From positions 1-64,000 of the IMG/VR virus record IMGVR_UViG_3300046168_000085: DNA of 64,000 bases, one strand, 5' to 3'. The position numbers and the translations under genes were made by a program. Positions within the stretch are counted from its first letter, which is position 1; every line of letters begins with the position of its first letter. Origin of the DNA: a virus. Shown piece after piece: positions 8,664-56,150 of the stretch. Under the pieces are notes generated by a model. It was not told the DNA's origin. It saw nothing but the letters and a program-made list of their open reading frames with translations, and ran no database searches.

Positions 8664-8664
8664 G

Positions 8665-12299: not shown

Positions 12300-12359
12300 A
12301 ATTTAATTTTTAATTGTTAAGTGTTTTAATTTTTAATATTTAATTTTTAATAAAAGGGT

Positions 12360-12411
12360 CAAGGTGCTTCATTGTATAGTTCATTATTTTTTTGATTGCT
12401 GTATGCACCTT
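12360..12411 (-). ncRNA. Putative structured RNA element, copy 2 (AAGGUGC-AUA-CAGCAA...GCACCUUG)
   Basis: 7-bp closing stem 12405-12411/12361-12367; motif shared with 12464-12544. Confidence 0.5.
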
Positions 12412-12463
12412 TCTAATATTTGCGGATCGTCAACTTGTCATAACCATTTATGATTAAAATCAA

Positions 12464-12544
12464 CAAGGCACGACGTAATGTTCACTTCAGTTGACGAACC
12501 ATTTCTTATTTCATGTATTAAGTTTGGTTTGCTGGATATGCCTT
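12464..12544 (-). ncRNA. Putative structured RNA element, copy 1 (AAGGCAU-AUC-CAGCAA...GUGCCUUG)
   Basis: 7-bp closing stem 12538-12544/12465-12471, just downstream of a TTGACG-N17-TATATA promoter (about 12562-12590). Confidence 0.5.
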
Positions 12545-12623
12545 TTTTAATCATGTAATATAATATAATTTATTTATTACGATTCGTCAAGCGTTTTGAC
12601 AAACTTTTTTAAATTAGTTTTAT

Positions 12624-13409: not shown

Positions 13410-14040
13410 AACTTACTTCTATAAATATATATTTTCTGAGATTTCTTTTAATAAAGTATTTGTTTATTAAATGTCTTGATTTACGATATTTTGTAGATTT
13501 TGCTTCCAATCTCGTAAATCGTTTAATTTATTTTGCATTTCTTCACATGATTCTTTCCAAAATTCTGCGTTGTCTCTTAGTTTGGAATTCATATTTCGTA
13601 ACAATTCCATTTCTTCGGATGCTTTGTATAACCAATCATTTACCTTATCAATATGTGGACAAGTAAAGTCAGGCATTTCTGGTTGATCTGCTTCAAATGT
13701 TTCAAACTCCGAAAGTTTTTTTTTGCTAACTACCCGTTTTTTTTTGGTTTTCACAACATTATAATTCGGTAAATACATACAATTTACATCAAACCAAATA
13801 TCTTTGCAAGAATAACAATTTGTAATGAAATGGTAACAAATCCAAACAGTGTTCTTAAAAACTCCATTTTATGATTGTGACGATCAAATAATCGTTCTAT
13901 TCTAACAGAAATCGGTTTTTTTTCTCCTTTGTCAATTTCACCTGGTTTTACAATTTGAACTTTTTGTACTTTCTTTATTGCCGGTTTTTCCACAAAGGGA
14001 CTTTCTTCTTTTTTCTTTTTATTTGCCATAACTATAAATA

Positions 14041-15111
14041 TTATTGTTCTTTGATAAATATAAACACAGGTTCGTATTTGAATCCTCCTGCGTTTAATGC
14101 ACTTAATGATAACTTCAATTCTCCTTTGTAAGTTAGTCCAACTTTTTTAGCAAGATTAACTGAATCTTCTTCTATTGGAAGTTTACCTGCATTTGCAATA
14201 TTAAGAAGCAAATGACCACCCACTTTCAAACCACGATTAACGTGACGAAGAGTTTGCTGAAGAAATCCGTTTGACCAATCTTCATAACTCGGAAACTTTA
14301 AATAACTTTGAGTTTCTTCATCACTGTATCTTTCAGTATCAAAATACGGGGGACTTGTAAAACACAAATCAATTGAGTTGGGTTGTGGCAAATATGCTTC
14401 ACTTCCTAAACAATGCAACTCCACTTTCTTTCCAAGATAACTAAAATCATCACGCATCTTACCAAGTCCACGATGTGTCAATGTACTTGGATCAGTTCCA
14501 ATGTATGTATGAATTCGTTTGCTCATCAAAGCACCAAGTAATCTACCACCCCAACCACAACTCATATCCCAAGTAACTCCACTTCCACCAAATTTTTCGT
14601 AAATAGCAGCCGCAGCTGTTGGACGAAAGTTGCTTACTCCTTGAACACCCGTTGCAATCTTCAAAATCTTACGCAGATACATATCACTAATAAGTTTTCC
14701 ATCATACTTAGTACGAAACATTAAACACTTACGAATAACCTTCTTGAATGATTCATCATCCTTGAACGCATCCATAGGACTTTTTTTATCGTTACAACGA
14801 ACACTCCAACTATGAGGAAAGTAACTCCATGCCAATCCTAATCCGTGCATTGTTTGACGCACAATATCTTCTGAAATATACTGTTCACACGAAACTTTTC
14901 GTAGTCTACGCATTTCGTTTATTTTTTCTTGTTCAGTAAATTTATAGTGAGGAAATCCATGCTTACGATAATACTTGAAAATAGCATCAATCGTTTCATG
15001 ATTTTCATAATCTCCGTCGAACTCTTGCTCAGTAATTGAATGAAATTCCATATCTACATCATCAACATCGACAAATGAACTCAATGCATTATAATTTATA
15101 GTAGTAGACAT
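14041..15111 (-). CDS. Phage DNA methyltransferase-like protein
   Basis: DMSCGWGGRLLG SAM-binding motif and FTSPPYF. Confidence 0.8.
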   Translation of the reverse strand: MSTTINYNALSSFVDVDDVDMEFHSITEQEFDGDYENHETIDAIFKYYRKHGFPHYKFTEQEKINEMRRLRKVSCEQYISEDIVRQTMHGLGLAWSYFPHSWSVRCNDKKSPMDAFKDDESFKKVIRKCLMFRTKYDGKLISDMYLRKILKIATGVQGVSNFRPTAAAAIYEKFGGSGVTWDMSCGWGGRLLGALMSKRIHTYIGTDPSTLTHRGLGKMRDDFSYLGKKVELHCLGSEAYLPQPNSIDLCFTSPPYFDTERYSDEETQSYLKFPSYEDWSNGFLQQTLRHVNRGLKVGGHLLLNIANAGKLPIEEDSVNLAKKVGLTYKGELKLSLSALNAGGFKYEPVFIFIKEQ

Positions 15112-15142
15112 TTTAATAATATATCTGAATTGTTAATTAATG

Positions 15143-16316
15143 TCAACCAACGATTAGCAATTTTTTTTGACTTCGTGTAACCGCAGTATATAACCAACGA
15201 TTCCAGTTTTCACGCCAAACATATTTACCTTCTTCAATGACCATTACATTTTCAAATTCAGAACCTTGACTTTTATGAGCAGTTATAGCATACCCGTAAT
15301 CGAATACTTCTTTACCACTATCTGAATGATACGCACTATACTTTTCCTTTGCAAACGATTCGTATAATATTTTCCCACGAAACATATCTTCGTTTACTCC
15401 GTCCATCTCGATTACACTTCTTGCGTAGTTCAAATGTGGGTTCTTAACAATATGTTTTACGGTTCCGTGTGCTCCGTTATATAAAGGAACATTGCTTCGT
15501 TTATTGTTCTTTAAACAAATGACACGATCACCGATCATCGGAGTGTGTTCAGTGAAATTATTATGATCACGAATTTTTGCATTCAAACCGATTCTTGTTT
15601 TGTTGAATCCACATACAATCACCGCAGTTCCGTTTAATAGATTTTTGCTTTTAACAAAATTGCTTATATCTCCGTTCTCTTTTGAAATTTCAGATTTAGG
15701 TAATTTTTTTACATTCTCGGAGAACTCACCAAACGGAATACGACCTTCTACACGAGCAAGCATACTTAATTTAATCAAAGCAGAACCCTCTGAAAATCTA
15801 TGTGGAGTTTCCAAACGCAACATCGGGTCTTGCATTAAATTAAAACTTTCATTGATCGGTGGTAATTGTCCGTGATCACCTACGTACAAAATAGGAACTC
15901 CGTAACTAAGCAAATCTTCGTGAACTGCTTGTCCTATCATACTTGCTTCGTCAACCACCACAAGGTCAGCATCAATGTTTGGTTTTTTGTCCCATCCTGT
16001 GACTTGTCCGTGCTCATCCAACTTTGGTTTGTATATCAAAGAATGAATTGTACTAACAGAACAATTATCTTCAAGGTCTTGATTACGTTCGTTTAATTTC
16101 TTACGAAGAACACTGGCTGCTTTACCTGTATACGCACAGTAAGCAATTGTACTATTATTTAACTTATCTTGAAGCAACGACATCAATGTGGTTTTACCCC
16201 GTTCCGGCATAACCACCCATTGTTAAGAATGGAACAGAATTCTGATGGTAAACATACCAATCAGTTATGTCATTGAATGCCGAGTTCTGATCTTTACTCA
16301 GTTGCAGTTGTGGCAT
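15143..16316 (-). CDS. RecD/Dda-like SF1B helicase (frameshift in Walker A near 16200)
   Basis: GGYAGTG/KTT, TGKAA, TIHSL, VDEASM, GDHGQLPP, YAITAHKSQGSE, LYTAVTR. Confidence 0.9.
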
Positions 16317-38111: not shown

Positions 38112-38155
38112 TTTACTATTATTATATAAACTAAGATATTAGTCAAACTCAAAAA

Positions 38156-39508
38156 TTAGCACTCAGTTACATTTACTGCCAATCCACCTTTACTTGTTTC
38201 TTTGTATTTGCTTTTCATATCAGCACCAGTTGCTTTCATTGTTTTTATTACGTCATCCAATGAAATTTTTGTATCGTTTTCATTAAGCATTGCCATACGA
38301 CTTGCATTAATTGCCTTTCCAACTCCAATTGCATTTCGTTCTATACATGGTATTTGTACAAGTCCTGCAACAGGATCACAAGTTAATCCTAAATTATGCT
38401 CCATAGCAATTTCGGCCGCATTTTCTACTTGCTTTAAAGTTCCTCCTACAATTTCAGTTAATGCACCGGCTGCCATACTACAAGCAACTCCCACTTCTCC
38501 TTGGCATCCTACTTCTGCACCTGATAAACTTGCATTCATTTTGTATAACATAGCAATTACTCCAGCCGTTAATAAAAACTTGATTTCCCAATCTTCTGAT
38601 TTTTCGTGGACATACTCTTTAATATACATCATTGTTGCGGGAATAATACCAGATGCTCCGTTGGTAGGAGCAGTAACAACACGATTCATAGCTGCGTTTT
38701 CTTCGTTAACCGCAATCGCACAAATGCTTGAATAATCAAGAAATGCTTGATTATCAAGTTCATTGTTTTTAAGAAAGTTTTCGTACATAATCGCAGCTCT
38801 TCGTTCTACATTTATTGTACCAGGAAGCATACCTTGAGTTGTTAATCCTCTGTCTACGCATTCTTGCATTATTCTCCATATTCTGCGTAATTCTGTTTTG
38901 GTTGTTTTTTCTTTTCTGAAACACTTTTCATTTTCCAACACCACATCAGATATTTTCAAATTACGATTTTCTGCGATAGTAAATAATTCTTCCGCACAAG
39001 AAAATTCATTGGTGAGTTTTCTTTTGGAAGTTTTAACTTTATTCTTTTTTGCGTTACTTTCTGTTACCACAAAACCACCACCAATGCTATAATACATTCT
39101 CGTAGCAACTTCTTTACTTTTTGTATAAGCATAAAACTTTATTCCATTGGGATGATACGGAAGTTTTTTCTTTTTGTTGAAAATTATATCATTCTGCGTG
39201 AATTTAATTTTACGAATGCCACCGAGTTTTATTTCTCCGTCAAGAGAATCAACTTCATTTAATTGTTGTTGTTTTACTTGATCCGGTGCATAATTCAATA
39301 AACCGAGTTGAATTGCAATCGGAGTTCCGTGACCTTCACCTGTTAATGCAAGTGAACCAAACAACTCAATTTTGATTGAATCGACTTCACCAAATACTTT
39401 TTTGTGTTTCAAAAAAGAAACAAACTTTCTTGATGCTTGGATAGGACCTGTGGTGTGTGAACTTGAAGGACCTATTCCAATTTTGAAAAAGTCAAGAACA
39501 CTATACAT
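38156..39508 (-). CDS. sdaA: L-serine dehydratase (Fe-S, single chain)
   Basis: GIGPSSSHT.GP, YYSIGGGF, VTAPTNGASG, GCQGEVG, GLTCDP, QIPCIERN, YKETSKGGLA. Confidence 0.97.
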   Translation of the reverse strand: MYSVLDFFKIGIGPSSSHTTGPIQASRKFVSFLKHKKVFGEVDSIKIELFGSLALTGEGHGTPIAIQLGLLNYAPDQVKQQQLNEVDSLDGEIKLGGIRKIKFTQNDIIFNKKKKLPYHPNGIKFYAYTKSKEVATRMYYSIGGGFVVTESNAKKNKVKTSKRKLTNEFSCAEELFTIAENRNLKISDVVLENEKCFRKEKTTKTELRRIWRIMQECVDRGLTTQGMLPGTINVERRAAIMYENFLKNNELDNQAFLDYSSICAIAVNEENAAMNRVVTAPTNGASGIIPATMMYIKEYVHEKSEDWEIKFLLTAGVIAMLYKMNASLSGAEVGCQGEVGVACSMAAGALTEIVGGTLKQVENAAEIAMEHNLGLTCDPVAGLVQIPCIERNAIGVGKAINASRMAMLNENDTKISLDDVIKTMKATGADMKSKYKETSKGGLAVNVTEC

Positions 39509-41358
39509 TATTCAAGAAACTTGAATGTACCACCTAGAATTTTCTTTGCGAAAGAATAATTCTTTTTGTCGTTATTGTTGCTCATTCCACTAAAGTTGTT
39601 TTTGATTTTGATTTTTGCTTCACTAAAAACCACATCCATCAACTCAAGATATTCAGCTGCTTTTTCAGGATCATCTTTGATCATGCTATCAATACGTAAT
39701 GCACACGCAGATATTACAAACAACTCAGTTCCAATTTCAGTCAAACGACCAAGAAGCATTTGTTGTTTGTCTAATGAAGGACCGTATCGTGCCATTGAGT
39801 GAAATAGTTTTCTGCTTAATTTCTTGCTTGTTCTTGAAACATAAAGAAGATACTTTTTGACTGCTCCATTTACTCCCGTGGGTCCTGAATTGAAAGTTGG
39901 TAACCATTGTTTTGGATACCAAGTTGCATAGTGTATTCCTGCTCCGATAGCTGCCTTTAAACGAACCATCAATGGAAGACGTGAATCAAGAACTGCTCCG
40001 GCTGCTTTAAGATGTGGATCAAGTGCTTCACGTGCCAAAAGCAAACGCATAATTTCACTTGAACCTTCAAAGATCATATTGATACGACAATCACGAAGAA
40101 ATCTTTCCACAGGAATTGGATCAGAACCACGATTGCGAAGTGAGTCAGCAGTTTCGTAACCACGACCACCACGTATTTGCATCGTTTCGTCTGCTACTTT
40201 CCATGCTTCTTCTGTTCCCCACATTTTACACATTGCAGATTCCACACGAATATCTGCTTTTTTACCATCCACTAAACTTGATGTAAAAAGAACGATACTT
40301 TCAGTTGCGAAATTCTTGGCCGCAATCTTAGCAATTTTATCACCAATTGCTTGGTGTTTACCAATAGCACATCCCCACTGTTCACGTGATGAACCCCACT
40401 CACGACAAATCTTTAAGCAACTACGCATAAGTCCCACACAAGCAGCCGGTAATGTAAGACGACCTGTATTCAATGTGCTAAGTGCAACCTTGAGTCCTTT
40501 GCCTTCTCCTGCTACCAAATTCTCCACAGGTATCTTTACATCGGTAAATCTTACAACACCATTATACAATGCTTTAAGACCCATAAAACGACATCGAGTA
40601 ACTACTTCTACACCAGGTGTATCCATATCAAGAATAAATGCCGAAATGCTTTTACGCATTTTGCCTTTAATTTCTGTATCAGGTGTTCTTGCCATTACAA
40701 TAATAACACTTGCTTTTACTCCATTTGTACACCAAAGTTTTTCTCCGTTTAAAACATAATGAGTTTTATCTTCTGATAACTCTGCGTAAACCGTCATTTG
40801 TGCAGGATCACTTCCTACAGTTTCTTCAGTCAACGCAAACGCACTAATTTCTCCTTTACCAAAACGAGGAAGATGCTTTTTCTTTTGTTCGTCTGTTCCG
40901 TAAAGTAACAATGGTTGAGGAACTCCGATACTTTGATGTGCTGATACTAACGCAGTTATATTTCCGCACACTTCACCCAACTTCATAGCCGCACGTGAAT
41001 AATTTGTTTGTGATAAACCACGACCACCATATTCCGTTGGAATTTTAATTGCGAATGCACCAATCTTTGCAAGTTCTTTAAATACTTCATCAGGAATTTC
41101 ACCTTCACGATCAATTGCGTCTGCATCTACATACTTGTCTAACACATCACCCAATTCATTCAAGAAAATATCTCCTTTTGCTTTGTCTTCTGCTTTTTGT
41201 TTCGGAAATGGATAAATCAAATCATAATTTGCTTCACCTGTAAACAAACCACCACTAAAACTTTTTGTTCCTTTTTTTCCTTTATCACGTGCAGCCTCGG
41301 CTGCTTCCAAGGCATCTGCTTTACCCTTGGACATTTTTGAAGTATCTATTTCACTCAT
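39508..41358 (-). CDS. fadE: Acyl-CoA dehydrogenase (FadE/ACAD9-like)
   Basis: AFALTE..GSD, LNGEKLWCTNG, R.QWG..IG, QIRGGRGY, IFEGSSEI. Confidence 0.93.
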   Translation of the reverse strand: MSEIDTSKMSKGKADALEAAEAARDKGKKGTKSFSGGLFTGEANYDLIYPFPKQKAEDKAKGDIFLNELGDVLDKYVDADAIDREGEIPDEVFKELAKIGAFAIKIPTEYGGRGLSQTNYSRAAMKLGEVCGNITALVSAHQSIGVPQPLLLYGTDEQKKKHLPRFGKGEISAFALTEETVGSDPAQMTVYAELSEDKTHYVLNGEKLWCTNGVKASVIIVMARTPDTEIKGKMRKSISAFILDMDTPGVEVVTRCRFMGLKALYNGVVRFTDVKIPVENLVAGEGKGLKVALSTLNTGRLTLPAACVGLMRSCLKICREWGSSREQWGCAIGKHQAIGDKIAKIAAKNFATESIVLFTSSLVDGKKADIRVESAMCKMWGTEEAWKVADETMQIRGGRGYETADSLRNRGSDPIPVERFLRDCRINMIFEGSSEIMRLLLAREALDPHLKAAGAVLDSRLPLMVRLKAAIGAGIHYATWYPKQWLPTFNSGPTGVNGAVKKYLLYVSRTSKKLSRKLFHSMARYGPSLDKQQMLLGRLTEIGTELFVISACALRIDSMIKDDPEKAAEYLELMDVVFSEAKIKIKNNFSGMSNNNDKKNYSFAKKILGGTFKFLE

Positions 41359-41360
41359 TG

Positions 41361-43451
41361 TTATTTATCCTCGTAGAATTTTTTGTTTGTTTTTGCGTAT
41401 TCAAGAAGCATATCACACGGAGTAAAGTATGCATCTTTTTTTGCTAGTTCTTGTAATTTTTGAACAACTTTTAATGCTCCTAAATTATCAAGATACGAAA
41501 TTGGTCCTCCACGAAATGGAGCCCATCCAGTTCCCATTATCATTCCAAAGTCTACATCCTTTGGACTATTTACAACTTCTTCTTGTAAACAACGAACTGC
41601 TTCGTTAACCATAATTAAAATTAAACGATCAACAATTTCTTCATCTGCAATTTCTTGATTTATATAAGCAGATTGGATTGCTGATGTAGGTAACTTAGAA
41701 CTTACACCTGTTGATTTTCCATTTGTATATTTGTAAAATCCACGACCACTTTTTTTACCTACATCTTTGTTGTCGATCATTAACTTCAAAAACTCTGATT
41801 TAGGAAAATTAGTTTCAAGACGATTCAGCAGATCATCTGCGACGTGTTGACATACATCCCCTCCTACTTCATCAATTAAACGAAACGGTCCCATTGGCAT
41901 TCCAAACTTACGCAACAACTTATCGACTCGTTCAATGTCTGCACCACACGAAACCATATAAACTGCTTCAATCAAATATGGCATAAGAATTCTATTAACA
42001 AGAAATCCAGGTGAATCTTTTACCACCACAGGAAGTTTACCTGTCTTTTTAACAAACTGAGTTGCTTTTAAAACGGTTTCCTCGGAGGTACATTCTCCAC
42101 GAACCACTTCCACTAATTTCATTTTGTGAACAGGATTAAAATAATGTATTCCGACCACTCGTTCTTTATGTTGCATTTTTTCTGCGACATCTACAATACT
42201 AAGTGCTGATGTGTTTGTTGCAAGAATTGTATCATCACGAACAAGTGTTTCAAGTTCCGCAAATAAATCCTGCTTGATTTCAAGTTGCTCAATCGCAGCT
42301 TCTACTACTAAATCAACACTTTTCATTGGCATAGATTCGGTGATAGGTGTAACATTATCAAACTTACTTGATGCTTCTGCTTTAGTCATCACTCGTTTGC
42401 TTACAGCTGCTGAGTACAATTTACTTATGCTTGCAATTCCTTTTGCTACAAACTCTGGTTTAATATCCTTGAGCAATACTTTGATTCCTCTTGAACTAAT
42501 CCATTGTGCAATACCTGCACCCATCACTCCTGCTCCTATAACCGCAGTATTTTTTACTTTAAAGTCTTTGTCACTTTTTGTTTTCTTGCTTCGTTCTTGT
42601 AAAAAGAATATGTTCACCAAATTGTTTGCTACATCTGAAGTAAGAAGTTCTGCAAATGCTTTTTGTTCAAGTTTAAGTGATTCTTCACGACTTACACCAA
42701 GACCTTTCACCATAACATCAATTGCTTTCAACGGAGCAGGATAAACGCCACCTGTTGTTTTAATAACATTTTTGGTTGCTTTGCTTTTTGCGATATACTT
42801 CAACGGAAAACGATTTAATAAATGAGACTTGTATTTCTTTTTTCCATTTAGTAACATTGCTTTTGCAGATGCTTCCAAATTTTCTTTGTATACCGCACGA
42901 TCAATCATTCCAAGTTTAAGTGCCAACTTTGGAACAACCACTTTACCTGCTAGAATAATTCCCATTGCTCCAGGTAACCCAATCATTCTTGGTAAACGAG
43001 TTGATCCACCCCAAGCAGGAAGAATTCCAAGCATCGTTTCTGGTAAACCAATTTTAGTTGCTGAATCTAATGTTGCAACACGATGATCACACGCAAGTGC
43101 AAGTTCATATCCACCACCCAAACACGCACCGTGAATTGCAGCCACAGTTACACACGACAAATCCTCAATACGATCAAATGTATGCTGACCAAGTTTTACT
43201 AAATAAGAAATTCTTTCAGGTGTAGGATCATCTGCGAATGATTTCAAATCCGCACCTGCGATGAATATACTTGGTTTAGCACTTTGAAATACCACTCCTT
43301 TGATCGTCTTACTGCTATCTTCTATAAAATCAAGATGATCATTTAATTCTGCAAACATATTTTCATCAAACACGTTAGCAATTGAATTTTCTTGATCAAA
43401 TGTTATTGTAACAACATCATTTAATTGTTCTAGTTTAATTGACTTGCTCAT
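41361..43451 (-). CDS. fadJ: Fatty-acid oxidation complex alpha subunit (enoyl-CoA hydratase/3-hydroxyacyl-CoA dehydrogenase)
   Basis: FIAGAD, CLGGGYELALAC, GLPE..LG..P, GAGVMGAGIA, ATNTS, HYFNP, PGFLVNR. Confidence 0.95.
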   Translation of the reverse strand: MSKSIKLEQLNDVVTITFDQENSIANVFDENMFAELNDHLDFIEDSSKTIKGVVFQSAKPSIFIAGADLKSFADDPTPERISYLVKLGQHTFDRIEDLSCVTVAAIHGACLGGGYELALACDHRVATLDSATKIGLPETMLGILPAWGGSTRLPRMIGLPGAMGIILAGKVVVPKLALKLGMIDRAVYKENLEASAKAMLLNGKKKYKSHLLNRFPLKYIAKSKATKNVIKTTGGVYPAPLKAIDVMVKGLGVSREESLKLEQKAFAELLTSDVANNLVNIFFLQERSKKTKSDKDFKVKNTAVIGAGVMGAGIAQWISSRGIKVLLKDIKPEFVAKGIASISKLYSAAVSKRVMTKAEASSKFDNVTPITESMPMKSVDLVVEAAIEQLEIKQDLFAELETLVRDDTILATNTSALSIVDVAEKMQHKERVVGIHYFNPVHKMKLVEVVRGECTSEETVLKATQFVKKTGKLPVVVKDSPGFLVNRILMPYLIEAVYMVSCGADIERVDKLLRKFGMPMGPFRLIDEVGGDVCQHVADDLLNRLETNFPKSEFLKLMIDNKDVGKKSGRGFYKYTNGKSTGVSSKLPTSAIQSAYINQEIADEEIVDRLILIMVNEAVRCLQEEVVNSPKDVDFGMIMGTGWAPFRGGPISYLDNLGALKVVQKLQELAKKDAYFTPCDMLLEYAKTNKKFYEDK

Positions 43452-43452
43452 T

Positions 43453-44700
43453 TTATTCTCTTTCCAAAATTATTGCACCACCTTGGCCACCACCAATACA
43501 AAGTGAAATTAATGCTCGTTTACCACCACGACGTTCAAGTTCCTTCAAAGTTGTAAGTGCAATACGTGAACCACTTGAACCAACTGGATGACCAAGAGCA
43601 ATTGCTCCTCCATTGACATTCAATTTGGCAAAATCAACTTCACCCAAGTTTGTGGTTTTTTTCAGTTGCTTGCAAACCGCAAGAACTTGGGCAGCGAATG
43701 CTTCGTTGATTTCAATTAAATCAAAGTCATCAAGTTTATATCCAGTTTCTTCGCATACTTTCTGAATCGCATAAACTGGTCCTAATCCCATTCTTTCAGG
43801 GATCACATCCTGCATATGCGTATGCGGAAATTCTACCCAATGGATTCCAATTGTTTTGCTTAACTGCATTTCATCTGCAATCAACAATGACACTGCTCCG
43901 TCTGTAATTTGCGATGCGTTGCCCGCAGTTACAGTTCCTTGTTTGCGATCAAATACAGGTTTAAGTTTTTCCAACGCACCCATACTTTGCTCACCACGAA
44001 TTCCATTGTCTGCATCAACGAATGTTCCGTCTGCGAAATAAAATGGGGAAATCTCAGATGACATTTTTTCTATTGCCACAAATGCTTTCAAATGAGATTC
44101 TAATGCAAACTTATCTTGATGATATCGTGTTACTCCACTTTCTCTTGCGATCAATTCAGCAGTTTCACCCATATTCATTCCAACCGTGATATCACTCAAT
44201 CCTAATCGTAAACTGATTATAGGTGCGAAGTCTTTTGGACGGAAACTCAATATCGTATGAAGACGATCACGAAATGTTCTACACTTACTTAACTTGGTAA
44301 ATTTATCAACTGCACTTGAACGATATAAAAATGGTGCTTGTGTCATATTCTCCGTTCCCCCACTTAAATAAACACTTCCACGATCAGCATTAATTTTATC
44401 AGATGCTTGTGTAATTGATTCAAAACCACTTGCACAATTACGATGAACCGTATAAGCAGGAACACTCTTGGGTACTCCCGATTTAAGTGAAATTACACGT
44501 GTGATGTTTGCGGTGTCTGCTGGTTGACATACACAACCCATTACACTTTCGTCAATTACATCGGGATTCAAATCCATCTTTGCAAACAATGCTTTTGTTG
44601 CAGAAACTCCGAGGTCTGCAGCTGATGTTTTAGCAAAGGTCGTACCCATTTTACAAAAAGGAGTCCGAGTACCATCTACAAGATATACATTTTTTTTCAT
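43453..44700 (-). CDS. fadI: 3-ketoacyl-CoA thiolase (short internal compensated frameshift)
   Basis: RNCASG, TAGNASQITDGA, NEAFA, GHPVG.SG, SLCIGGGQG. Confidence 0.93.
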   Translation of the reverse strand: MKKNVYLVDGTRTPFCKMGTTFAKTSAADLGVSATKALFAKMDLNPDVIDESVMGCVCQPADTANITRVISLKSGVPKSVPAYTVHRNCASGFESITQASDKINADRGSVYLSGGTENMTQAPFLYRSSAVDKFTKLSKCRTFRDRLHTILSFRPKDFAPIISLRLGLSDITVGMNMGETAELIARESGVTRYHQDKFALESHLKAFVAIEKMSSEISPFYFADGTFVDADNGIRGEQSMGALEKLKPVFDRKQGTVTAGNASQITDGAVSLLIADEMQLSKTIGIHWVEFPHTHMQDVIPERMGLGPVYAIQKVCEETGYKLDDFDLIEINEAFAAQVLAVCKQLKKTTNLGEVDFAKLNVNGGAIALGHPVGSSGSRIALTTLKELERRGGKRALISLCIGGGQGGAIILERE

Positions 44701-44994
44701 AACCGTTACATTATATATATCACAATTTTATACATATCGTCAACTATATAACGAACAATATACATAAATGGTTTATATTAATTTATGAAAAAAACTTTGA
44801 AAGCAAGTGAATCCATATTCCGATTGAATCCACAACCACAAAATAAAACGCAAGAGCAGCCAACCAATACATTTTTCTGCCGACAAAAAAGATGATACTT
44901 AAAAAATTAACAATCGCAAAAACAACAAATCCCCAACCAATCAATTCTGGAAAAGGAAGTATTCCTCCTCCGATCATTCCAAGAATTGCAATGA

Positions 44995-46727: not shown

Positions 46728-47735
46728 TTAAAAATCGTCAACTAATGCAGATTCATCTTGATAATCAATAACTCTTGTTTCAAAAAAGTTCTTTTGTTTG
46801 CGAATATCAATAACTTCACTTAACCAAGGAAATGGATTGTTATCACTATCATAGCGATATTTCATATTTAGATTTTCCAATCTACGATTAGCAATAAACT
46901 GCATATACTCAACGAACATTTCAGAATTTAATCCAAGAATACCTCTTGGTAATACATCTTGTGCATACGAAATTTCCAATTCAACTGCTTGTTTTAGAAC
47001 TTCTGTCAACTCAGTTTCAAATTTGTCGGTCATTAAATCAGGATTTTGTTCTCGGATTTTATTCAACAAAGTTGTTCCAAATTTGATGTGAATACTTTCA
47101 TCACGAAGTGTATATTGAATTTGCTCTGCGATACCTGGTATTTTATCACTTAGTGCGAGTAACATTGCAAATCCACTGAAAAAGAATGTTCCTTCGCATA
47201 CAACCCAATATGTAAATGCGGCCTTGTACAACTCTCGTTTTCCTTCAATAGTAGATGTATCGATATTTGCTTCATTCAATCCACCTGTTACTTGTATAAG
47301 AAAATCATCTTTTGCTTTGATAGATGGAACCGTTTTATATGCTTCGTATACCTCACCTATATCCAAGTCTAAACTATCACAGATATAAACTACAGTGTGA
47401 TTGTGCAAGCACTCTTCATACATCTGTCTTGCCATATATTGTCTACATTCAGGATCAGTAATGTACTTGGATAATGTCATAAGATTGTTTGCAACCAAAC
47501 TTTCACTTCCTGCAAAGAAACCAAGACATCTCTTAATAACCAAACGTTCATCTTCACTCAATGCATCATCAGGTGATGATTTCCAATTTTGAACATCTTT
47601 TGTCATCGGTACATCTGTTGGTACCCAGTTGTTTTTGACACCTTGTTCATACAGATCCCACGCCCATTTATGTTTATGAGGGAGAATTTGATTTACCCCC
47701 TCTGTTTCTTTTCCTAGTAGTTCTCCAGTTTTCAT
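46728..47735 (-). CDS. nrdB: Ribonucleotide reductase small subunit, class Ic (R2c)-like
   Basis: Ferritin-like ligands SESLV, EECLH, EGTFFFSGF, RDESIH; NFFE.RV.DY tail. Confidence 0.93.
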   Translation of the reverse strand: MKTGELLGKETEGVNQILPHKHKWAWDLYEQGVKNNWVPTDVPMTKDVQNWKSSPDDALSEDERLVIKRCLGFFAGSESLVANNLMTLSKYITDPECRQYMARQMYEECLHNHTVVYICDSLDLDIGEVYEAYKTVPSIKAKDDFLIQVTGGLNEANIDTSTIEGKRELYKAAFTYWVVCEGTFFFSGFAMLLALSDKIPGIAEQIQYTLRDESIHIKFGTTLLNKIREQNPDLMTDKFETELTEVLKQAVELEISYAQDVLPRGILGLNSEMFVEYMQFIANRRLENLNMKYRYDSDNNPFPWLSEVIDIRKQKNFFETRVIDYQDESALVDDF

Positions 47736-47770
47736 AATAATATATATAACGATTCAGTAGTTAAAAAAGT

Positions 47771-48118
47771 TTATAATGATTTCAAATTTTGTTGTTTTAA
47801 ACGATACACAAGTAACCCAAGAATAGCAAGACCAACAAACGGTAGCACATAATACCAATTAACAAAAGATTCATTAGATGCGTTCGTTTGTATTTCAGTT
47901 CGTGTTATTGGTTTAGTTTTAGTATTCTGTTTACTTGGTTGTGTTTGTTGAACTATAACAGGGTCATCAAGAACATCCGTGTTTGTATCTACCGGTGTTG
48001 TAACTTCCGTTGGTTGTTTGGGTACTCCGAGTGTTCCACCGGACGAGTTTAATAACTTGTTTTTAATACCACACGATGTAAGTGTAGTGATGCATAGTAA
48101 TATCAATAAATGTTTCAT
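47771..48118 (-). CDS. Lipoprotein with C-terminal TM helix
   Basis: LTSC lipobox, Pro/Thr-rich linker, C-terminal hydrophobic segment. Confidence 0.5.
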   Translation of the reverse strand: MKHLLILLCITTLTSCGIKNKLLNSSGGTLGVPKQPTEVTTPVDTNTDVLDDPVIVQQTQPSKQNTKTKPITRTEIQTNASNESFVNWYYVLPFVGLAILGLLVYRLKQQNLKSL

Positions 48119-48772
48119 ATATAATTCTCCTTTATTTAGAAGAACAATATACCATATTTTATTGTGTACGTAAAGTAATTAAATTATTTCTTGTCGTGAC
48201 AAAGACAATCACATTTGTTGTCTTTGCAACACTTAACAAAAAAGCATTTAATTTTACAAATAATTTTTTTGATCAATTCCATTGTTATTATAAATATTAA
48301 ATTTAATTATTATATTCACGACATTCGCAGTCTTTTATTTTACAATTAGGATTGATCATTCCTGCTCGTTTGAATGTAAGTTTTACAAATTCCTCAAAAA
48401 AGAAAACATAAGCAGCTGCATCATAGTTGTCCATTGCTATTGTAATTTCTTTTTCGTATGTTCTCATCCACTTGGTATATTCATCAAACTTATCAGCATC
48501 AAAATGAGGTCCTTTCAAATCGTATTGATGAATCAATAATGCCAAATTTAATTTTGACTTTTTCAATGTTGCAAATCTTGCGATGTCTTTAGAAAACTTT
48601 GCTCGTTCTCGTTTTTCCTTTTCGTATGCTTCGTAAGATGCTTGTAATTTCGGATCAACGATGTCTATCCAAGTTTTACTTTCTTTCTTTATAAACCCAT
48701 CACCCTTGGCACAATAAAGCACCAAGGGTGATAAAAATAAAAATGTAACCTTTAAAATAAGACTAACGAGTC

Positions 48773-49774
48773 TCAATACTTCAACTCAAATTTAGGAGTG
48801 AAATCTTCAAGAGGTAGTTGTCTTAATACTCTCTCGGGATTCCGTGATCGTTCGTTTGGAAGAATTTTAATGCGAAATGGGAAATGCTTTTGAATTGATT
48901 TTTCATCGTCATCGTCATCGTCTGCACTACGAATTACTCCAGAATCTTCAATTTGCATTCCGAGAATGTCATCCATACTTGGCATATCTTCTTTTGGGTC
49001 AATTGCCCACATAATATCATTCTTTTTTGCCCACTCTTTCATTCTACGAACAGGGTACCATTAAATTGAATCCTTCTCCTGCTCCACGAACAATCATTCC
49101 GACATACTTTCCATTTTGCAAATAAACTCCTCCTCCTGAACTTCCTGGAAATGCAGTAACCGTTGTTTGATCGTATTCGTATTTATCAAGTGTTCTTCCT
49201 ACTTGAGAAATGATACCAGTTGTCATTGAGTTTGCACCCATTTGACCAAGCAACGAACCAACGTGAAATAAACTCGTTCCGATTGGCACAATGCCATCAT
49301 TAGCATCACTTAAATTAAATTCAACTCCTTCTTTTGCATAATCAGTAGCACGAACCATAAGAAGTGCCAAATCGTGACCATCTTTGTAATCTGAGTATTT
49401 GATTACTTTGGCATCCATTTTCATTTCACCGACACGTCTGCCTTTTCTACAAGTTCTTTAACAATAGACGCATCATCAAATTCTACAAGTTTAACTGGAC
49501 TTCCTCCTTCAATAACACTTCGTACTTTACGAAGATTATCAACAACGTGTGCGGCCGTCCAAACGAAAGTAACTTTTTTTCCGTCTACTTCACGGATGAT
49601 CATTGCTCCAGAACCTTCTGAACTACTATACTTTGCTTTTGCTTTTATAGTAACCGATACATCTTGTAAATGGTCTGCAACTTCTCGTACTTGTTTAGCA
49701 CTCGGAGCTCCTGTTGAAATGTTTACTGAAAATGCCGTAATGGCCACTACTACTAAAAGTTTGATTGCGTTCAT
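48773..49774 (-). CDS. Secreted trypsin-like serine protease (split in three by frameshifts)
   Basis: Signal peptide; triad motifs TAAH, DLALL, PGSSGGG. Confidence 0.85.
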
Positions 49775-49856
49775 GAATGCTACCCTCCTGGGTTTGAGAT
49801 TGATAATATATCTATATATATTAACCCAAACGCACTTTTAGGTCAATCTTTAATAT

Positions 49857-52342
49857 CTATTGACAACTCTCACACACTTCACCACGCATTTTTGCTTCTA
49901 AACTGCACAATGAGGGTTCTTCAGATTCTTGTGGATTTTCTGTATCTGTATTATCTGCATTGTGTTCTTCTACATTTGATCCAGTTGACTTTTCAATTGC
50001 ACTTGCCGCCAAATTCCGCAAATAGTAAGTTGTTTTCAATCCACTTTTCCATGCGTGTGTATAAATGTCGTTCAAAAACTTCATACTACTTTTGTCGTTG
50101 TAAAGATTCAAACTTTGACCTTGATCAATCCACTTTTGACGAGCAGCCTGCACAATCAATAAGTTTGAATTGATCTTGTTGAAATGCAGTAACATATTTT
50201 TCTTTTATCCATTGAGGAATTGAACCATTTAGTTTGCTAAGATCACCATCAACGGTTTTAACCAAGTTGGCAAGTTCTTTTGTCCAAATTCCTTCTGCTT
50301 TCATATCATTAACAAAGTATTCGTTCATCATTGTAAACTCACCACTTAAAGTAGAATACACAAAAATAACTCCAAAGTTTGGTTCAATGCTTTGTGAACA
50401 TCCTGCGATGTAACTGATTGTTGCAGTTGGAGCAATTGCCATTGTATTGGAATTACGCATTCCTTGTTTGGCAACTTTCTTTTTGAGTTTGTCCCAATTT
50501 TTTCTAAGATTCACTTCGTCAGAATTTCCACGAAGTTTCATAACCTCTTTCCAAGTATCAATCGGAAATGTTCCTTTGCTCCAAAGACTTCCTGTGTATG
50601 ATTCGTAAGTTTCTTTTTCTACTGCCATATCAGACGAAGATTCAATTGCGAAATAAGAAATGTTTTCATAAATTTCATCACTAATACGAATTGCATCATC
50701 ACTTCCGTAGTTGACACTAAACTCATAAAACATATCGTGCCAACCCATTGTTCCTAATCCAACAGGACGATGAGTCATATTACTTTTACGTGCTTCTTCT
50801 GTTGGATAATAATTTAGATCAATAACATTGTCTAACATACGCATTGCCATTTTGGTGCTTTTTTCTAATTTATCATAATCAATAAATTTTTCACCATTTT
50901 TATCTACACCTACGTGTCGTTTCAAATTGATGCTTGCTAAATTGCAAGTTGCAGTTTCTCCGTATTCTTTAACGGTGCGTGTGCCATCATCTGCGTGAAT
51001 AGTGGGTTTGGTATGAAGAAGAATCTCTGTACACAAATTACTGCTATGCACCGTTCCTACGTGCTGATTACTATACCGAATATTACTTGGGTCTTTGAAG
51101 GTTACCCACGGATGACCAGTTTCAAAAATACTTTTCAACATTTTCTTCCAAAGGTCTTTTGCTTTGAGTTCACGAAAAACATTCAATTCTCCGTCTTGAC
51201 CTTTTTTAACATATTCCCAATATTTTGTTTCAAATGCTTCACCGAAGATTTCGTGTAACTCAGGAACTTCATTTGGACTAAACAAATACCAAGGACCATC
51301 TGCTTCTACTTGTTTCATAAACAAATCAGGAATCCAATTTGCAGTATTCATATCGTGACAACGCATTCTGTCATCACCTACGGTTTTTCGTAATGCCAAA
51401 AAGTCTTCAATGTCAGAATGCCATGTTTCAAGATATGCACATCCTGCACCTTTTCTTTTTCCACCTTGATTTACTGCAACGAGCATATCATTGTAAAGTT
51501 TCCAAAAGTATACAGGTCCTTGATTGATTCCGTTTGTTCCTTTGATATAACTACCTCTTGCACGAAAGTTTGAGATGTCAAAACCAAGACCACCTGCGAA
51601 TTTGCTTTTTCTTGCTTCTTGCCAAATGCCATCAAAAATTCCATCAATAGAATCATCAAAGTATTTAAATAGCAACTGCTGAGTTGACTATGAGTTGTTC
51701 CACTATTAAACAAAGTTGGTGTGGAACTAACTACATCAAAGCAACTAAGAGTTTCGTAAAACTTTAATGCGTATGCTTGTCGGTCTTCTGGTTTTTCATT
51801 TAATGCCAATCCCATTGCAATACGCATCCACATTGCTTGTGGAGTTTCCATACGACGTCCTTCTATATGCAAAAGATAACGATCATAAATGGTTTGTATT
51901 CCAAGATACTTCCAATCTTTTTCTCTATCAATATTAAGTTTCGCACTAAGTTCACGCAAATCAAAACTTTCAAGTAACTCTTCGTTGAGAATTTCTTCAC
52001 GGACTAATCTACGCATATTAGTAATAAAACTTTTACGATACTGAAGTTCAAACGCATCACTATCTACTCCTTCACCGAACACTTCTTTGTAAATTGTATT
52101 AAGAAGCATTCTCGCAGCCATATAAGCATAATTCGGTTCAAACTCAATTTTAGACCTAGCACTCATAATAAGTGATTTGTCTATTTCAGTTGTTGTAACT
52201 TTATCGTACAACTTTATTTTGGCATCAATTAATACTTCACTTGCACTTACGTTATCTAAATTTTTGATGCACGTTCGGCACATTCGTTGATTTTATCAAC
52301 ATTAAATTCTTCGAGTCTTCCGTTGCGTTTTTTTACTTTCAC
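49857..52342 (-). CDS. nrdA: Ribonucleotide reductase class I large subunit with ATP cone (frameshifted)
   Basis: VKKRNG start, [55 protein letters not shown]. Confidence 0.95.
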
Positions 52343-52455
52343 TTGTAACCTTTTGTTAGAATTTTATATTAACATTATAATTTAATTATATAAATATCAT
52401 TTACGAAATCTATCGTAAAAATACATACTATATATACAGAATTTTTTAACCAATA

Positions 52456-53862
52456 TCAGACACTATCTTCGTTATTATATGAATTTTTATTGTTCATTTG
52501 GTCGTACTTGGATTTAAGAAGATTCTTTGCGCCATTATCAGAATCATTCATTTCCACCATTATTTCCGCACCCTTTGTACTTTTTTCATCATATATTTCA
52601 ATAACACCCGAAGACGTGTCAACTCTACTTGGAAATGTCAAACCATCGGGTCCAAACCGATTTTTAATGACATGAAATCTACCTGTGTTACTGACTTTGT
52701 CAGTTGCTTTTCTTGATAAACTTATCACGAAAGTCTGCCGTCATTATTTTCCGATAACTATCCGCAACTTTTTGTGCTTCAATAATATTATCTTCTAACG
52801 ATGAACGACTTGCTTGTGATGCAGTCCACACAGGTACTCCGAGTTCGCCCGCAAGGCCTCGGAGATCCTCATAAATTCCTCCTTGCTCAACATAACTGTT
52901 GGCATTGTTTCCGTGATTACCAGGAGATAAAATATCTGCATAGTCAATCACAACCATATCAACCGGATATCCCATTGTATTTGCTAAATTTGCGTGTGCA
53001 AGAATTGTACTTACTCCTACACTTTTCGTTGGATATTCTTTAATAAGAAGTTTTCCTTTAATGTTTGCTACAACATTTTTTACAGTTTCTTCGTGTTCAA
53101 TAATATCTTGAAACGGAATACCTGTAAAACAACTATCATAACGAAGTCCTACATAACACTCGTTAAGTTCCATTGTATAATGCAAAACATTTTTACCAAG
53201 TTTCATTGCAGATTTACCAAGTGATGCAAGCACCAACTTTTTCCTCCACCTGCACTACTAATAATAACACCGAGTTCTCCTGGTCCCAAACCTCCGTTTG
53301 TTAAATCATCAATTACTTCCCATCCGGTGGCCACAGTATCACGTGCAGTTTCTGACATTCTAAGTTCAATGTCACGTGCATAGTCGTGACCCATATCACG
53401 TGCAGTTCCTGCTTTTAATGCATCATCAACTATTCGTTTGATTGATTCGTATTGACCACCTTTGAGAAAGTCAACACTTTGCATAATTGCATTTTTAACT
53501 TTTGGTTCTTACAAAAGTCTAAAAATTCGTTTTTAACGAACTCTGTATCATTTAGATCAACTTGTGTAAATATATTTCTTAGTTGATCTATGATTGCCAG
53601 CTTTTAATGAATCAATTCCTACATCGTCACACTTAATTTTGAATACATCTAATGTTGCAGTCTTTTTGTATTTACTATAATGAGTTAAAATCTCATCAAC
53701 AATCCATTTGTGTGCTTCACTTTCCCAATACTCTGTTTCAATGATATCGTGCGTTCTGTCCAAGAATTTTTTGTCATCGATTAAAGCACGAATTGTTTTA
53801 CTTTGAAATGCAGTCCCAAACTTTTGTAGGGTATCCACATTATTATTATTAGTCTCCGTCAT
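52456..53862 (-). CDS. Replicative DnaB/gp41-like helicase (split in four by frameshifts)
   Basis: GGGKS Walker A, YTMEL, IDYAD, WTASQ, KNRFGPDG. Confidence 0.9.
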
Positions 53863-53917
53863 ATTTAATAAACTTTATCAGATGACTCTGGTTGAATCAA
53901 GTCTATTTATAAAAAAA

Positions 53918-54997
53918 CTACGAATTACTTGTAATTGCATAGTTGTTCAAAATGGTCCAAGTTTCCATAAGCCAGTTATGGTGATTAGGAAACGCGGCCC
54001 ATAGTTGGTCTTCTGCGAACTTTTTGCTAAATTCAAATTTATTAAGTTCGGTTACAGGAGAATCTACATGATCAAATATTTTCGTTTGCATACTTGCAGG
54101 AAGAATACTATCTTTCAATTGCATTAAATCATAGTTTCGTTTAAGTAAACTCTGATTATCTTCTTTCAAAAAGTTTTTATACAAAGGCATTTCTTTGAGT
54201 TTATCTTCTGAAATTTTTATTAAATCGTCTCTGCTTATAAATTGTTCGGTTGCAAGTTCAGGAAAAGCAGTTTTAAGTTTCTTTTCACCTATACCTTTGA
54301 TCCCATCTATATTATCCCCACGATCACCATCAATTGTTCTGTATAACAGAAAATTATTTGGATGAATTCCGTACTCTAACGAAACTTTTTCAGGAGTATA
54401 AACTGTTCGTTTGGTTGGACTATAAACAGTTACATCGTTATCTACCAACTGAAGAAAATCTTTGTCAGTACTCATTATTGTACACTTTTTACCAAGACCA
54501 CTAAAATATGATCGTGCTAATAATGCCATAACATCATCTGCTTCTACATTATCCATACATATAGTAGTAACAGGAAGCATATTCAAATATTGTATCAATT
54601 TAACTATCTGATACTTCATCGAACTTGATTCTTCGGTTTGATCTAAGTCTAAACTCAACGCACGATTTACACGAAACCGAACATTCTTTTTCATTTTATA
54701 GTCAGGAAAGATTTTACGTCTTCTTGCACTCCCACCCTTTCCATCAAATACAACGATACATCGTGTGGGTTTACGCAAACGAATTGCGTGACCTATGCTC
54801 TTTAGAAACCCGGTATATCCACCTATATGATCACCATTGTCGTTGGTGGTCGGATACATACTCCAAACACGCATAAACGTGTTCATACCATCAATTAAAA
54901 GGGTATCAGAATTTATATTCCGGTCTACATCTAGTTCTTCTTTTTGTTCTTGAGAGAATTCTTGAAATAAACTAAATATCTTTTTTTTATCACTCAT
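53918..54997 (-). CDS. 5'-3' exonuclease / T4-type RNase H (FEN family)
   Basis: LIDGMN, VFDG, YK, EADD, STDKDFLQL, GD.GDNI.GIKGIGEK. Confidence 0.92.
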   Translation of the reverse strand: MSDKKKIFSLFQEFSQEQKEELDVDRNINSDTLLIDGMNTFMRVWSMYPTTNDNGDHIGGYTGFLKSIGHAIRLRKPTRCIVVFDGKGGSARRRKIFPDYKMKKNVRFRVNRALSLDLDQTEESSSMKYQIVKLIQYLNMLPVTTICMDNVEADDVMALLARSYFSGLGKKCTIMSTDKDFLQLVDNDVTVYSPTKRTVYTPEKVSLEYGIHPNNFLLYRTIDGDRGDNIDGIKGIGEKKLKTAFPELATEQFISRDDLIKISEDKLKEMPLYKNFLKEDNQSLLKRNYDLMQLKDSILPASMQTKIFDHVDSPVTELNKFEFSKKFAEDQLWAAFPNHHNWLMETWTILNNYAITSNS

Positions 54998-56150
54998 TTG
55001 AAACAGATGCTAATTCTGCGTCTTCAATTTCTGCATTATCCGTGAACTCAACATCTTCATCTACTACACTATTTGCTGATTCATATTCCATTACAATGTT
55101 ATCACAAATATGCTGATATAATTCTTTTTTTAGTTCTATGTCTTTCAACATTTCAGGAAATTCTTTTGCCATAAACTTATAATCTTTTCCTTTGGAGTCT
55201 GTAAATGAATAATAAGCACCACCTTGTTTTAAGATTTTGTGTGTTTTCAATGTTGTTATCCAACTTCCGATATCATCAATACCACGATTAAAATAAATTT
55301 CAAATGATGCTTTTCGTTGTGGAGGACCCATTCTGTTTTTTACAATAGTTGCTTCACATTTTCCACCGATAACTTCTGTGGTTGCACCTTTTTTAATTTG
55401 ACCCATACTTTTCAGACGAATACGAACACTTGCGTGAAACGCAATTGCTTTACCACCACTCGTTGTCCACGGATCACCAAACATAACTCCCATCTTTTGA
55501 CGAAGTTGGTTAGTGAATACCAATGCAATTTTTTGTCTTCCAATTGTTGAAGTCAACTTACGCATTGCCTTACTAATTAAAATTGCTTTAGTAGTTGCAT
55601 ATCCATCTTTCGCATAATCTGCCGCCATTTCAATTTTAGTTGATGCAGCCGATACACTATCTGTTACAATCGTTACAAGTTTATCTTTGTTGCTTTTACG
55701 TACCGTTGCGATGATATTGTCAATGGTTGCAAAAATATCTTCCACCGTATCAACGTGGACATACAATAACTTTTCAGTATCAACACCAATTGCTTTTAGA
55801 TACTCAATGGATACACTTGTCTCGGTATCTATTAATACCGCAACACCTCCCTTCTTTTGAGTTTCCGCAAGAATGTGTCCAGATACTAAACTTTTTCCAC
55901 TTTGTTCAAGTCCAGTTAGTTCTGTGATTCGGCCTGTGGGAATTCCACCATTGGGACGATTTGAGATTGCAAGATCAAGAAGACTACTGCCAGTTGAAAT
56001 CCAATCTGATATTAGCGATGGATCATCACCTTCACTTAAAAAGAAAGCAACTTTGCCTTCATCTTTATATGCAGTATTTAAACTATCTGCAAGTACACTT
56101 GCTAAATCATCGGACTTGCTTGTTGCTTTTACTTCTTTTTTCTTTGCCAT
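54990..56150 (-). CDS. recA: RecA/UvsX-like recombinase
   Basis: STGS..LD, GRITE..GLEQSGKS, IDTE, DSV, NQLR, TTSGGKA..F.ASVR. Confidence 0.93.
   Translation of the reverse strand: MAKKKEVKATSKSDDLASVLADSLNTAYKDEGKVAFFLSEGDDPSLISDWISTGSSLLDLAISNRPNGGIPTGRITELTGLEQSGKSLVSGHILAETQKKGGVAVLIDTETSVSIEYLKAIGVDTEKLLYVHVDTVEDIFATIDNIIATVRKSNKDKLVTIVTDSVSAASTKIEMAADYAKDGYATTKAILISKAMRKLTSTIGRQKIALVFTNQLRQKMGVMFGDPWTTSGGKAIAFHASVRIRLKSMGQIKKGATTEVIGGKCEATIVKNRMGPPQRKASFEIYFNRGIDDIGSWITTLKTHKILKQGGAYYSFTDSKGKDYKFMAKEFPEMLKDIELKKELYQHICDNIVMEYESANSVVDEDVEFTDNAEIEDAELASVSNE

Follow-up and report, generated by a model that had tools for sequence, protein, structure and literature searches.

We analyzed a 64-kb stretch of viral DNA (the window), the first 64 kb of the 80,388-bp IMG/VR record IMGVR_UViG_3300046168_000085 (G000). 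Between positions 38156 and 44700, four consecutive minus-strand genes encode a 3-ketoacyl-CoA thiolase, a FadB/FadJ-like enoyl-CoA hydratase/3-hydroxyacyl-CoA dehydrogenase, a long-form acyl-CoA dehydrogenase (ACAD) and an L-serine dehydratase (SdaA). We interpret this block as an auxiliary metabolic operon of a large marine myovirus-type phage that feeds the energy metabolism of the infected cell, and assign this reading a probability of about 0.65. As a whole, the interpretation has partial support: the four genes are carried by a phage, are old and undamaged and are under selection, and we infer their use during infection.

The four open reading frames (ORFs) lie on the strand and at the positions given in an earlier annotation made from the letters alone (hereafter the sequence-only reading), and Pfam searches bore out the identities it had proposed. 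From the first gene of the operon to the last, they are:

43453..44700, minus strand: 3-ketoacyl-CoA thiolase, 415 aa (Pfam Thiolase_N/C, 3e-59 and 6e-41; 201 and 139 bits)
41361..43451, minus strand: enoyl-CoA hydratase/3-hydroxyacyl-CoA dehydrogenase of FadB/FadJ/TFE-alpha architecture, 696 aa (Pfam ECH_1, 3HCDH_N and 3HCDH)
39508..41358, minus strand: VLCAD/ACAD9-like acyl-CoA dehydrogenase, long form, 616 aa (Pfam Acyl-CoA_dh_N/M/1 and an ACAD9/ACADV C-terminal domain)
38156..39508, minus strand: single-chain Fe-S L-serine dehydratase (SdaA), fused beta and alpha parts, 450 aa (Pfam SDH_beta and SDH_alpha, 6e-49 and 6e-87)

The thiolase, assessed from the in-frame copy on the related contig L085, scored 426 bits against the NCBIfam acetyl-CoA C-acyltransferase model TIGR01930 (cut-off 240.55). 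Its nucleophilic Cys, NEAF Asn, GHP His and CxGGG Cys are all present in alignments with PDB 4e1l, FadI and TFE-beta. The second protein combines crotonase, 3HCDH_N and duplicated 3HCDH domains in one chain, and aligns over its full length with PDB entries 6tnm, 1wdk, 6dv2 and 8bnu (~1e-127 to 1e-129). It retains the hydratase residues (GGYE116 and PE138), the NAD site GAGVMG and the H436/E448 pair of HYFNPVH...E, and these catalytic residues are invariant in 19 homologs. The sequence-only reading had called this protein FadJ-type. The name fits the architecture, and we use FadJ below as shorthand, but it does not hold as an equivalog assignment, since the scores against NCBIfam FadJ (626 bits) and FadB (603 bits) fall below the cut-offs of 869 and 870.

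The ACAD matched the structures of ACAD9 (8phe, 6.5e-84) and VLCAD (8ca1/3b96, ~1e-70 to 1e-74), and its catalytic Glu is present in FEGSSEI, a form of the (F/Y)EG(T/S)xEI motif. The enzyme is predicted to use FAD and the electron-transfer flavoprotein (ETF) of the host. We rejected a pathway of reverse beta-oxidation because the first enzyme is an ETF-type ACAD. SdaA scored 603 bits against NCBIfam TIGR00720 (cut-off 345) and aligned with the Legionella enzyme (PDB 4rqo, 7e-131), including the three cluster Cys residues and the C-terminal Cys. By these alignments, the catalytic residues of all four enzymes are intact.

Is the beta-oxidation set complete, as the sequence-only reading held? The four core reactions are covered; the activation step and ETF are not. 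No acyl-CoA synthetase/AMP-binding ligase (PF00501) or ETF (PF01012) was found in the five records of the lineage that we searched (G000, G001, G004, G005 and G006, all fragments, ~500 kb), nor was a FadL-type gene found in these ~500 kb. Since neither a ligase nor ETF was found, the spiral would depend on acyl-CoA supplied by the host, on host ETF and on host ETF:quinone oxidoreductase.

The genes are packed as tightly as first described. The thiolase and FadJ genes are separated by 1 nt and the FadJ and ACAD genes by 2 nt, and the ACAD stop codon and sdaA start codon share the A of a TAATG at 39508. Identical junctions occur in four related contigs. The TTGACG noted earlier near 44740 is also present, upstream of the thiolase gene, as part of a longer element:

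44714..44743, minus strand: promoter-like element read from the sequence, TTGACG (44743-44738), a 17-nt spacer and ATATAT/TATATA (44720-44714)
38118..38146, minus strand: promoter-like TTGACT-17-AATAAT, read from the sequence, 35 nt before the ATG of a DNA methyltransferase gene (36642-38111)

In the first element, TTGACG lies 37 nt from the thiolase ATG, with ~13 nt between ATATAT(A) and the ATG and no Shine-Dalgarno sequence before it. A block of ~50 nt, TTCGTTATATAGTTGACG...TGATATATAT...AACGGTTATG, is kept in nine of ten relatives, and the sequence farther upstream is divergent. We regard TTGACG-N17-ATATAT as a candidate promoter. The second element likely marks the downstream end of the operon; a terminator-like site was not found between it and sdaA. 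It is also one of seven minus-strand TTGACN-N17-WAWNWT elements in the window that lie exactly 35 nt before an ATG (7315, 15146, 20277, 24062, 25701, 28400 and 38146), a promoter-to-ATG geometry that suggests leaderless mRNAs. These elements are confined to 1-38 kb, with none in the replication or tail part, and for that reason we rejected the geometry as a sign of one single genome.

The setting of the operon is that of a phage. The minus strand holds 108 of the 118 window ORFs of at least 50 aa, GC stays between 0.29 and 0.38 from end to end without a break, and neither strand, GC nor GC skew changes at 46 kb. The genes on the two sides of the block and immediately upstream of it are:

46728..56150, minus strand: replication and nucleotide genes on one side of the block, encoding NrdB, NrdA, an exonuclease and a RecA/UvsX-like recombinase (Pfam, PHROGs)
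44995-45186, 45288-45611 and 45620-46096, minus strand: Ldh_2-family dehydrogenase in three pieces (Pfam)
44783-44977, minus strand: small ORF upstream of the operon
8069..16216, minus strand: genes on the other side, encoding a NUDIX hydrolase, a translation-factor-like protein, a dCMP deaminase, a TROVE/DUF2828 protein, a methyltransferase and a Dda-like helicase (PHROGs, Pfam)

The higher-coordinate side also has a DNA polymerase and, outside the window, a tape-measure-like protein, a baseplate hub and a contractile tail sheath. On the lower-coordinate side, the Dda-like helicase matches its PHROG with an E value of 9e-74, and there are several DNA methylases and, within 1-36 kb, many ORFs without a Pfam or PHROGs match. 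Tail sheath, RecA, ribonucleotide reductase (RNR) and operon are joined on a single contig in G000 and, independently, in the 57.5-kb G001. The block thus has the genomic setting of auxiliary metabolic genes (AMGs), namely metabolic genes of cellular origin with viral genes on both sides. The combination expected of a prophage, an integrase or recombinase with host genes at the border, was not seen: phage-type genes lie on both sides, and no tyrosine integrase (PF00589) was found in the five records, in a search that did not extend to serine recombinases or attachment sites. Judged by this context, the block is phage DNA and not host flank.

IMG/VR labels G000 a 'provirus', with a CheckV completeness of 51%. 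Two related 'provirus' records, G004 and G005 (ends L177 and L184), stop just short of Ldh_2 and the operon, at the equivalents of window positions 46053 and 46183. The label seems to be an artefact, the caller apparently having scored the metabolic genes as host.

The four-gene string, which the sequence-only reading had reported from this one DNA, recurs in other contigs (L003, L004, L085, L087, L089 and L165-L168) and in a sister lineage, G413. Across the block, ten more contigs, which come from different metagenomes, match the window collinearly, with a nucleotide identity of 77-92%. The collinear set comprises the contigs just named, G413 apart, plus the short L086 and L088, and the genes contained in it are full-length except for a stop in the sdaA of L085. 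Ldh_2 is likewise intact, as one gene of 359-376 aa, in L085, L166, L004 and G413. The G413 lineage (RecA 86% identical, GC 0.40) has the order NrdB - Ldh_2 - thiolase (76%) - FadJ (67%) - ACAD (81%) - SdaA (65%) - methyltransferase. As the string is shared with G413, it predates the split of the two lineages. G413 has an additional 217-aa ORF between the small ORF and the thiolase gene (L353:5145-5798), and a gap of ~10 nt between ACAD and sdaA in place of the TAATG overlap.

To describe selection on the block, we used median pairwise dN/dS (Nei-Gojobori), which was 0.11 for the thiolase, 0.13 for FadJ, 0.12 for the ACAD and ~0.10 for sdaA (only pairs free of a parsing artefact). The medians for the neighbors NrdB and NrdA were 0.06 and 0.08. 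Median dS was 0.4-0.9, with values up to ~1. The block is under purifying selection. More than 100 FadJ clusters (made at a 90% identity cut-off) share at least 78% identity with the window FadJ, and every FadJ homolog that is at least 67% identical and has a readable context lies on a phage-syntenic contig. The long relatives G004-G008 contain no FadJ; each of these records ends before the operon position and is hence uninformative on absence. The more distant phage contigs G414-G416 (RecA 62%), fragments too, contain no FadJ either.

The copy of the block in G000 probably contains errors. Two 1-nt indels that compensate each other, at 43868 and 43799, put codons ~278-300 of its thiolase (43799-43868; 23 codons) out of frame. 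This patch falls outside the catalytic motifs, and the gene is in frame in the nine relatives with a full copy and in contigs of all four sequencing runs compared. A 1-nt difference from the contigs of all four runs, at 45296, splits Ldh_2, and further single-base indels relative to all four lie at 49053, 49442, 50149, 51660, 52268 and 53226. Those in the RNR region probably account for the split of NrdA into two ORFs (50125-51675 and 51471-52283). An additional split gene, astD (32556-33332/33271-33927), is outside the stretch compared with the run contigs. Because the same record has these further 1-nt indels splitting other genes, the indels are probably assembly errors and not marks of pseudogenes.

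Where did the operon come from? The sequence-only reading had named near-identity to a bacterial chromosome, with a coverage discontinuity, as one finding that would speak against a phage operon. No near-identical bacterial chromosome was found among the matches listed. The nearest bacterial FadJ homologs are 50-53% identical among the matches listed, and the best match in 401 sampled Verrucomicrobiota genomes is 52%. In a maximum-likelihood tree (LG+C20+F+G4, quick search), all phage sequences fall together in a single clade (SH-aLRT 100). It lies within a larger clade (100) whose other members are Verrucomicrobiota genomes and unnamed metagenome contigs; the bacterial sample of this tree is biased toward Verrucomicrobiota. 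The comparison with bacterial homologs called for at the outset thus yields a single phage clade with Verrucomicrobiota as its nearest neighbors. In the bacterial relatives, the order is patatin-ligase-thiolase-FadJ-ACAD, and sdaA is absent from the locus. These observations point to one old capture of the core, with sdaA probably added in the phage. The GC of the operon (0.376, versus a phage background of ~0.34 and 0.50-0.67 in the nearest bacterial loci) fits a long residence in phage.

Lipid-catabolic operons of Verrucomicrobiota, for example at the loci L006 (a metagenome-assembled genome labeled Akkermansia), L010, L092 and L093, begin with genes for a patatin-like phospholipase and an AMP-binding ligase. 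They share the three core genes with the phage, in matching order and with lengths that are much alike, and are the nearest in the tree. Identity to the phage proteins is 50-54% for the thiolase, 45-53% for FadJ and 55-65% for the ACAD. Unlike these operons, the phage copy is without the lipase and ligase, has sdaA joined by TAATG, has a GC of ~37% rather than 50-67% and sits between RNR and methylase genes.

Near-identical DNA turns up in sequencing runs from 20 studies, all seawater or marine and six filed as RNA. The operon is also represented in Logan contigs from three metatranscriptome libraries, in one run as 5,373 nt spanning 39734-45105 and in the others as pieces of 2.7 kb and 1.9 kb. 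These contigs show only presence, not transcription. Their low or zero cover at 36.7-39.3 kb (methylase and sdaA) should not be taken for silence, as alleles of sdaA differ by more than the 90% threshold allows. Word depths are unable to rank the genes. A 13.8-kb 'joint' (39730-53493) was ignored, as its sides were only 21 nt.

Beyond the methyltransferase gene that follows the operon, five genes in one direction (27394-33927) encode AstB, AstA, a class III aminotransferase, an M20 peptidase and a split aldehyde dehydrogenase. Together they look like an arginine succinyltransferase (AST)-type catabolic set. A HGLS/DUF1338-like gene lies beside this set at 34231-34722.

We propose the following history and use for the operon. 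A phage ancestor would have acquired the genes for thiolase, FadJ and ACAD together, in a single piece, from a lipid-catabolic operon of Verrucomicrobiota type; the two genes at the front of the bacterial version, for patatin lipase and acyl-CoA ligase, would have been lost or never taken, and the serine dehydratase gene would then have been placed directly behind ACAD. During infection, one sigma70-like promoter with a very short leader would drive synthesis of a trifunctional-enzyme-type pair (thiolase and hydratase/dehydrogenase) and a long-chain ACAD. The four beta-oxidation reactions would run on acyl-CoA made by host enzymes and yield acetyl-CoA, NADH and, via host ETF and ETF:quinone oxidoreductase, reduced quinone, and SdaA would convert serine to pyruvate and ammonium. 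In this way the block, together with the neighboring AST genes, could feed the tricarboxylic acid (TCA) cycle and respiration of a nutrient-poor host and pay for replication of a large genome. In this scheme, transcription from the promoter, formation of a complex, the substrates, the need for host FadD and ETF and the advantage gained by the phage are all presumed.

Several points weigh against an operon that fuels infection. With the activation step and ETF lacking, the block would be of no use in hosts that do not have them. The thiolase of the window itself contains the frame-shifted patch. In L085, a contig that is 96% related and has all three genes for beta-oxidation intact, codon 191 of sdaA is an in-frame stop (L085:12290 region), which points either to a sequencing error or to a dispensable sdaA. 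The 'provirus' label is attached to G000 and to two relatives, G004 and G005. The records are fragments, and the whole genome and the stretch beyond window position 1 fall outside their coverage. Of the genes with which we tried to extend beyond that position, the FG-GAP protein had no relatives and the TROVE protein only distant ones; the methylase at 473-1318 was rejected as a bridge, its matches being unrelated phages with only that gene in common. Finally, DNA may be present in RNA libraries, and neither the strand nor the ends of transcripts can be read from contigs.

A rival reading is that the block is not cargo of a lytic phage at all and instead represents host chromosome beside a prophage, or a prophage 'moron' that widens the diet of the lysogen (lysogenic conversion). 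The 'provirus' calls, the two records that stop before Ldh_2 and the operon, the concentration in 1-38 kb of sigma70-like promoters exactly 35 nt before an ATG, and the fact that the genes of the block are ordinary bacterial metabolic genes all agree with such an origin. They are set against phage-type genes on both flanks, unchanged strand, GC and GC skew at 46 kb, the many ORFs in 1-36 kb without a Pfam or PHROGs match and the failure to find an integrase in ~500 kb of the lineage. Moreover, the string from NrdB to the methyltransferase is kept in a sister lineage of different GC, the best bacterial identity among the matches listed is only 50-53%, and the record ends near 46 kb are most simply explained by a provirus caller that scores metabolic genes as host. 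We consider a prophage or host origin quite unlikely. We also think it very improbable that the block lacks function, whether as a decaying relic or as an assembly chimera. The frame-shifting indels of the record, thiolase included, and the nonsense codon in the sdaA of L085 would be expected of a relic or chimera. Full-length open genes in at least nine independent contigs, dN/dS of ~0.1 at dS up to ~1, the same junctions in assemblies of many studies and the correction of the thiolase indels in contigs of all four runs compared would not.

A different question is whether active enzymes would serve bulk energy supply. They could instead remove particular acyl-CoAs (regulatory long-chain, amino-acid-derived or hydroxy-acyl species), remodel membranes before lysis, or provide acetyl-CoA and pyruvate as building blocks. 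Chain-length specificity is unreadable from sequence, the neighbors are amino-acid catabolic genes (the AST set, the HGLS/DUF1338-like gene and Ldh_2), and sdaA is joined to ACAD in phages only, all of which leave room for such purposes. However, the ACAD is of the long VLCAD/ACAD9 type, the nearest bacteria place the three genes after a patatin lipase and an acyl-CoA ligase, a lipid-catabolic setting, and the chemistry of an ACAD and an NAD-dependent dehydrogenase gives reducing power whatever the purpose. A role other than energy supply therefore seems to us unlikely, if still worth keeping in view, and we favor the auxiliary metabolic operon that feeds the energy metabolism of the infected cell.

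Most known phage metabolic genes are single genes of photosynthesis, nucleotide or phosphate metabolism. Like the classical phage AMGs (psbA, talC, phoH, RNR), the genes described here are host-derived metabolic genes kept under selection; unlike them, they form a whole multi-step catabolic module in one operon, beside an AST pathway and Ldh_2. The sequence-only reading had considered such an operon very unusual in a bacteriophage, and we found no convincing GenBank phage record with these genes. GenBank 'phage' matches for FadB, SdaA and ACAD were rejected as precedents, as they are bacterial contigs filed as phage. The only named isolate with an ACAD, Microcystis phage MaAM05 (L254, MW495066.1 99425-110465), has fliM, ompA, pomA, murJ, bioD and pcnB around the gene, and this part of its record resembles a bacterial chromosome. 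A full-text search of open-access papers and preprints found no description of a phage beta-oxidation operon. What appears to be new, and is notable, is a phage AMG block that spans all four core reactions and is joined to serine deamination.

The likenesses to known systems are partial. Trifunctional complexes (E. coli FadBA/FadIJ, the Pseudomonas fragi FOM 1wdk, M. tuberculosis 4b3h and human TFE 6dv2) share the alpha-chain architecture and catalytic residues, with the gene or chain of the partner thiolase adjoining. The phage proteins are ~35-40% identical to them and below the FadB/FadJ equivalog cut-offs, the phage thiolase gene comes first and a phage complex is putative. Giant viruses of eukaryotes, such as Prymnesium kappa virus RF01, also carry lipid-catabolic enzymes including ACAD, proposed as fuel for infection. 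Lipase, synthetase, CoA-transferase and ACAD are present in giant viruses, with hydratase and ketothiolase undetected in any (2022 review, PMC9270025). The phage, a tailed phage of bacteria, has the reverse gap, with four core reactions and no activation step; its block supplies the very hydratase and thiolase noted as missing from giant viruses. Reads of fadB in Pacific Ocean viromes, a signal of the fatty-acid oxidation complex, have been taken to mean that energy is generated during infection (Hurwitz, Hallam and Sullivan 2013, PMC4053976). That observation was at the level of reads; fadB was not among the linkage-validated genes and came with no operon, genome context or lineage. When phosphate is limiting, levels of the host proteins for fatty-acid degradation go up in marine virocells (PMC11170926), which provides a physiological precedent for the use proposed here.

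Phage metabolic genes shape the flow of carbon and nitrogen through infected ocean bacteria, and the present case is a conserved catabolic module under selection in a widespread and abundant group of seawater phages that is uncultured. If the operon is active, infected cells would shift from building lipids to burning them and would deaminate serine and arginine, with changes in respiration, ammonium release and the lipid content of lysates. The compact three-enzyme beta-oxidation set is directly testable in E. coli fad mutants. Virus-calling pipelines appear to trim metabolic islands as 'host', and the frequency of such islands in phages may be underestimated.

FadJ proteins identical or near-identical to the phage-syntenic ones also occur on contigs of 124-569 kb, which could be huge-phage genomes, concatemers or bacterial chromosomes with prophages. 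P0016, which has the same sequence as the FadJ of L003, belongs to a cluster that is also found on 161-493 kb contigs, and near-identical relatives of the L087 and L089 proteins are on contigs of 263-569 kb. The FadJ proteins on 161-569 kb contigs include P0016/P0123, P0049, P0031, P0035, P0099 and P0010. CheckV rates the 17-36 kb fragments of relatives as 5-6% complete, and G004 and the window together imply a genome of at least ~200 kb. The lineage may thus be a very large ('huge') phage. In its widest form, our reading is of a global lineage of very large marine phages, possibly of several hundred kb (an estimate that rests on the identical FadJ proteins on 161-569 kb contigs), with a coordinated 'self-digestion' set made up of beta-oxidation and sdaA, the AST pathway, Ldh_2 and a PrkA-YeaH-SpoVR module. 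This set would turn the lipids and amino acids of a starving host into acetyl-CoA, pyruvate, succinate, reducing power and ammonium, with a phage-made trifunctional complex plugged into host ETF and the respiratory chain, and its bearer would be the first known virus, of whatever kind, to encode all four beta-oxidation reactions. We offer this picture tentatively, as possible but somewhat short of an even bet.

The window also contains translation-related cargo: a peptide deformylase (6732-7280), a match to a PHROG translation initiation factor (8665-9207; E 3e-42), ribosomal protein bS21 (20048-20242) and tRNA-Ser(TGA) (19411-19500).

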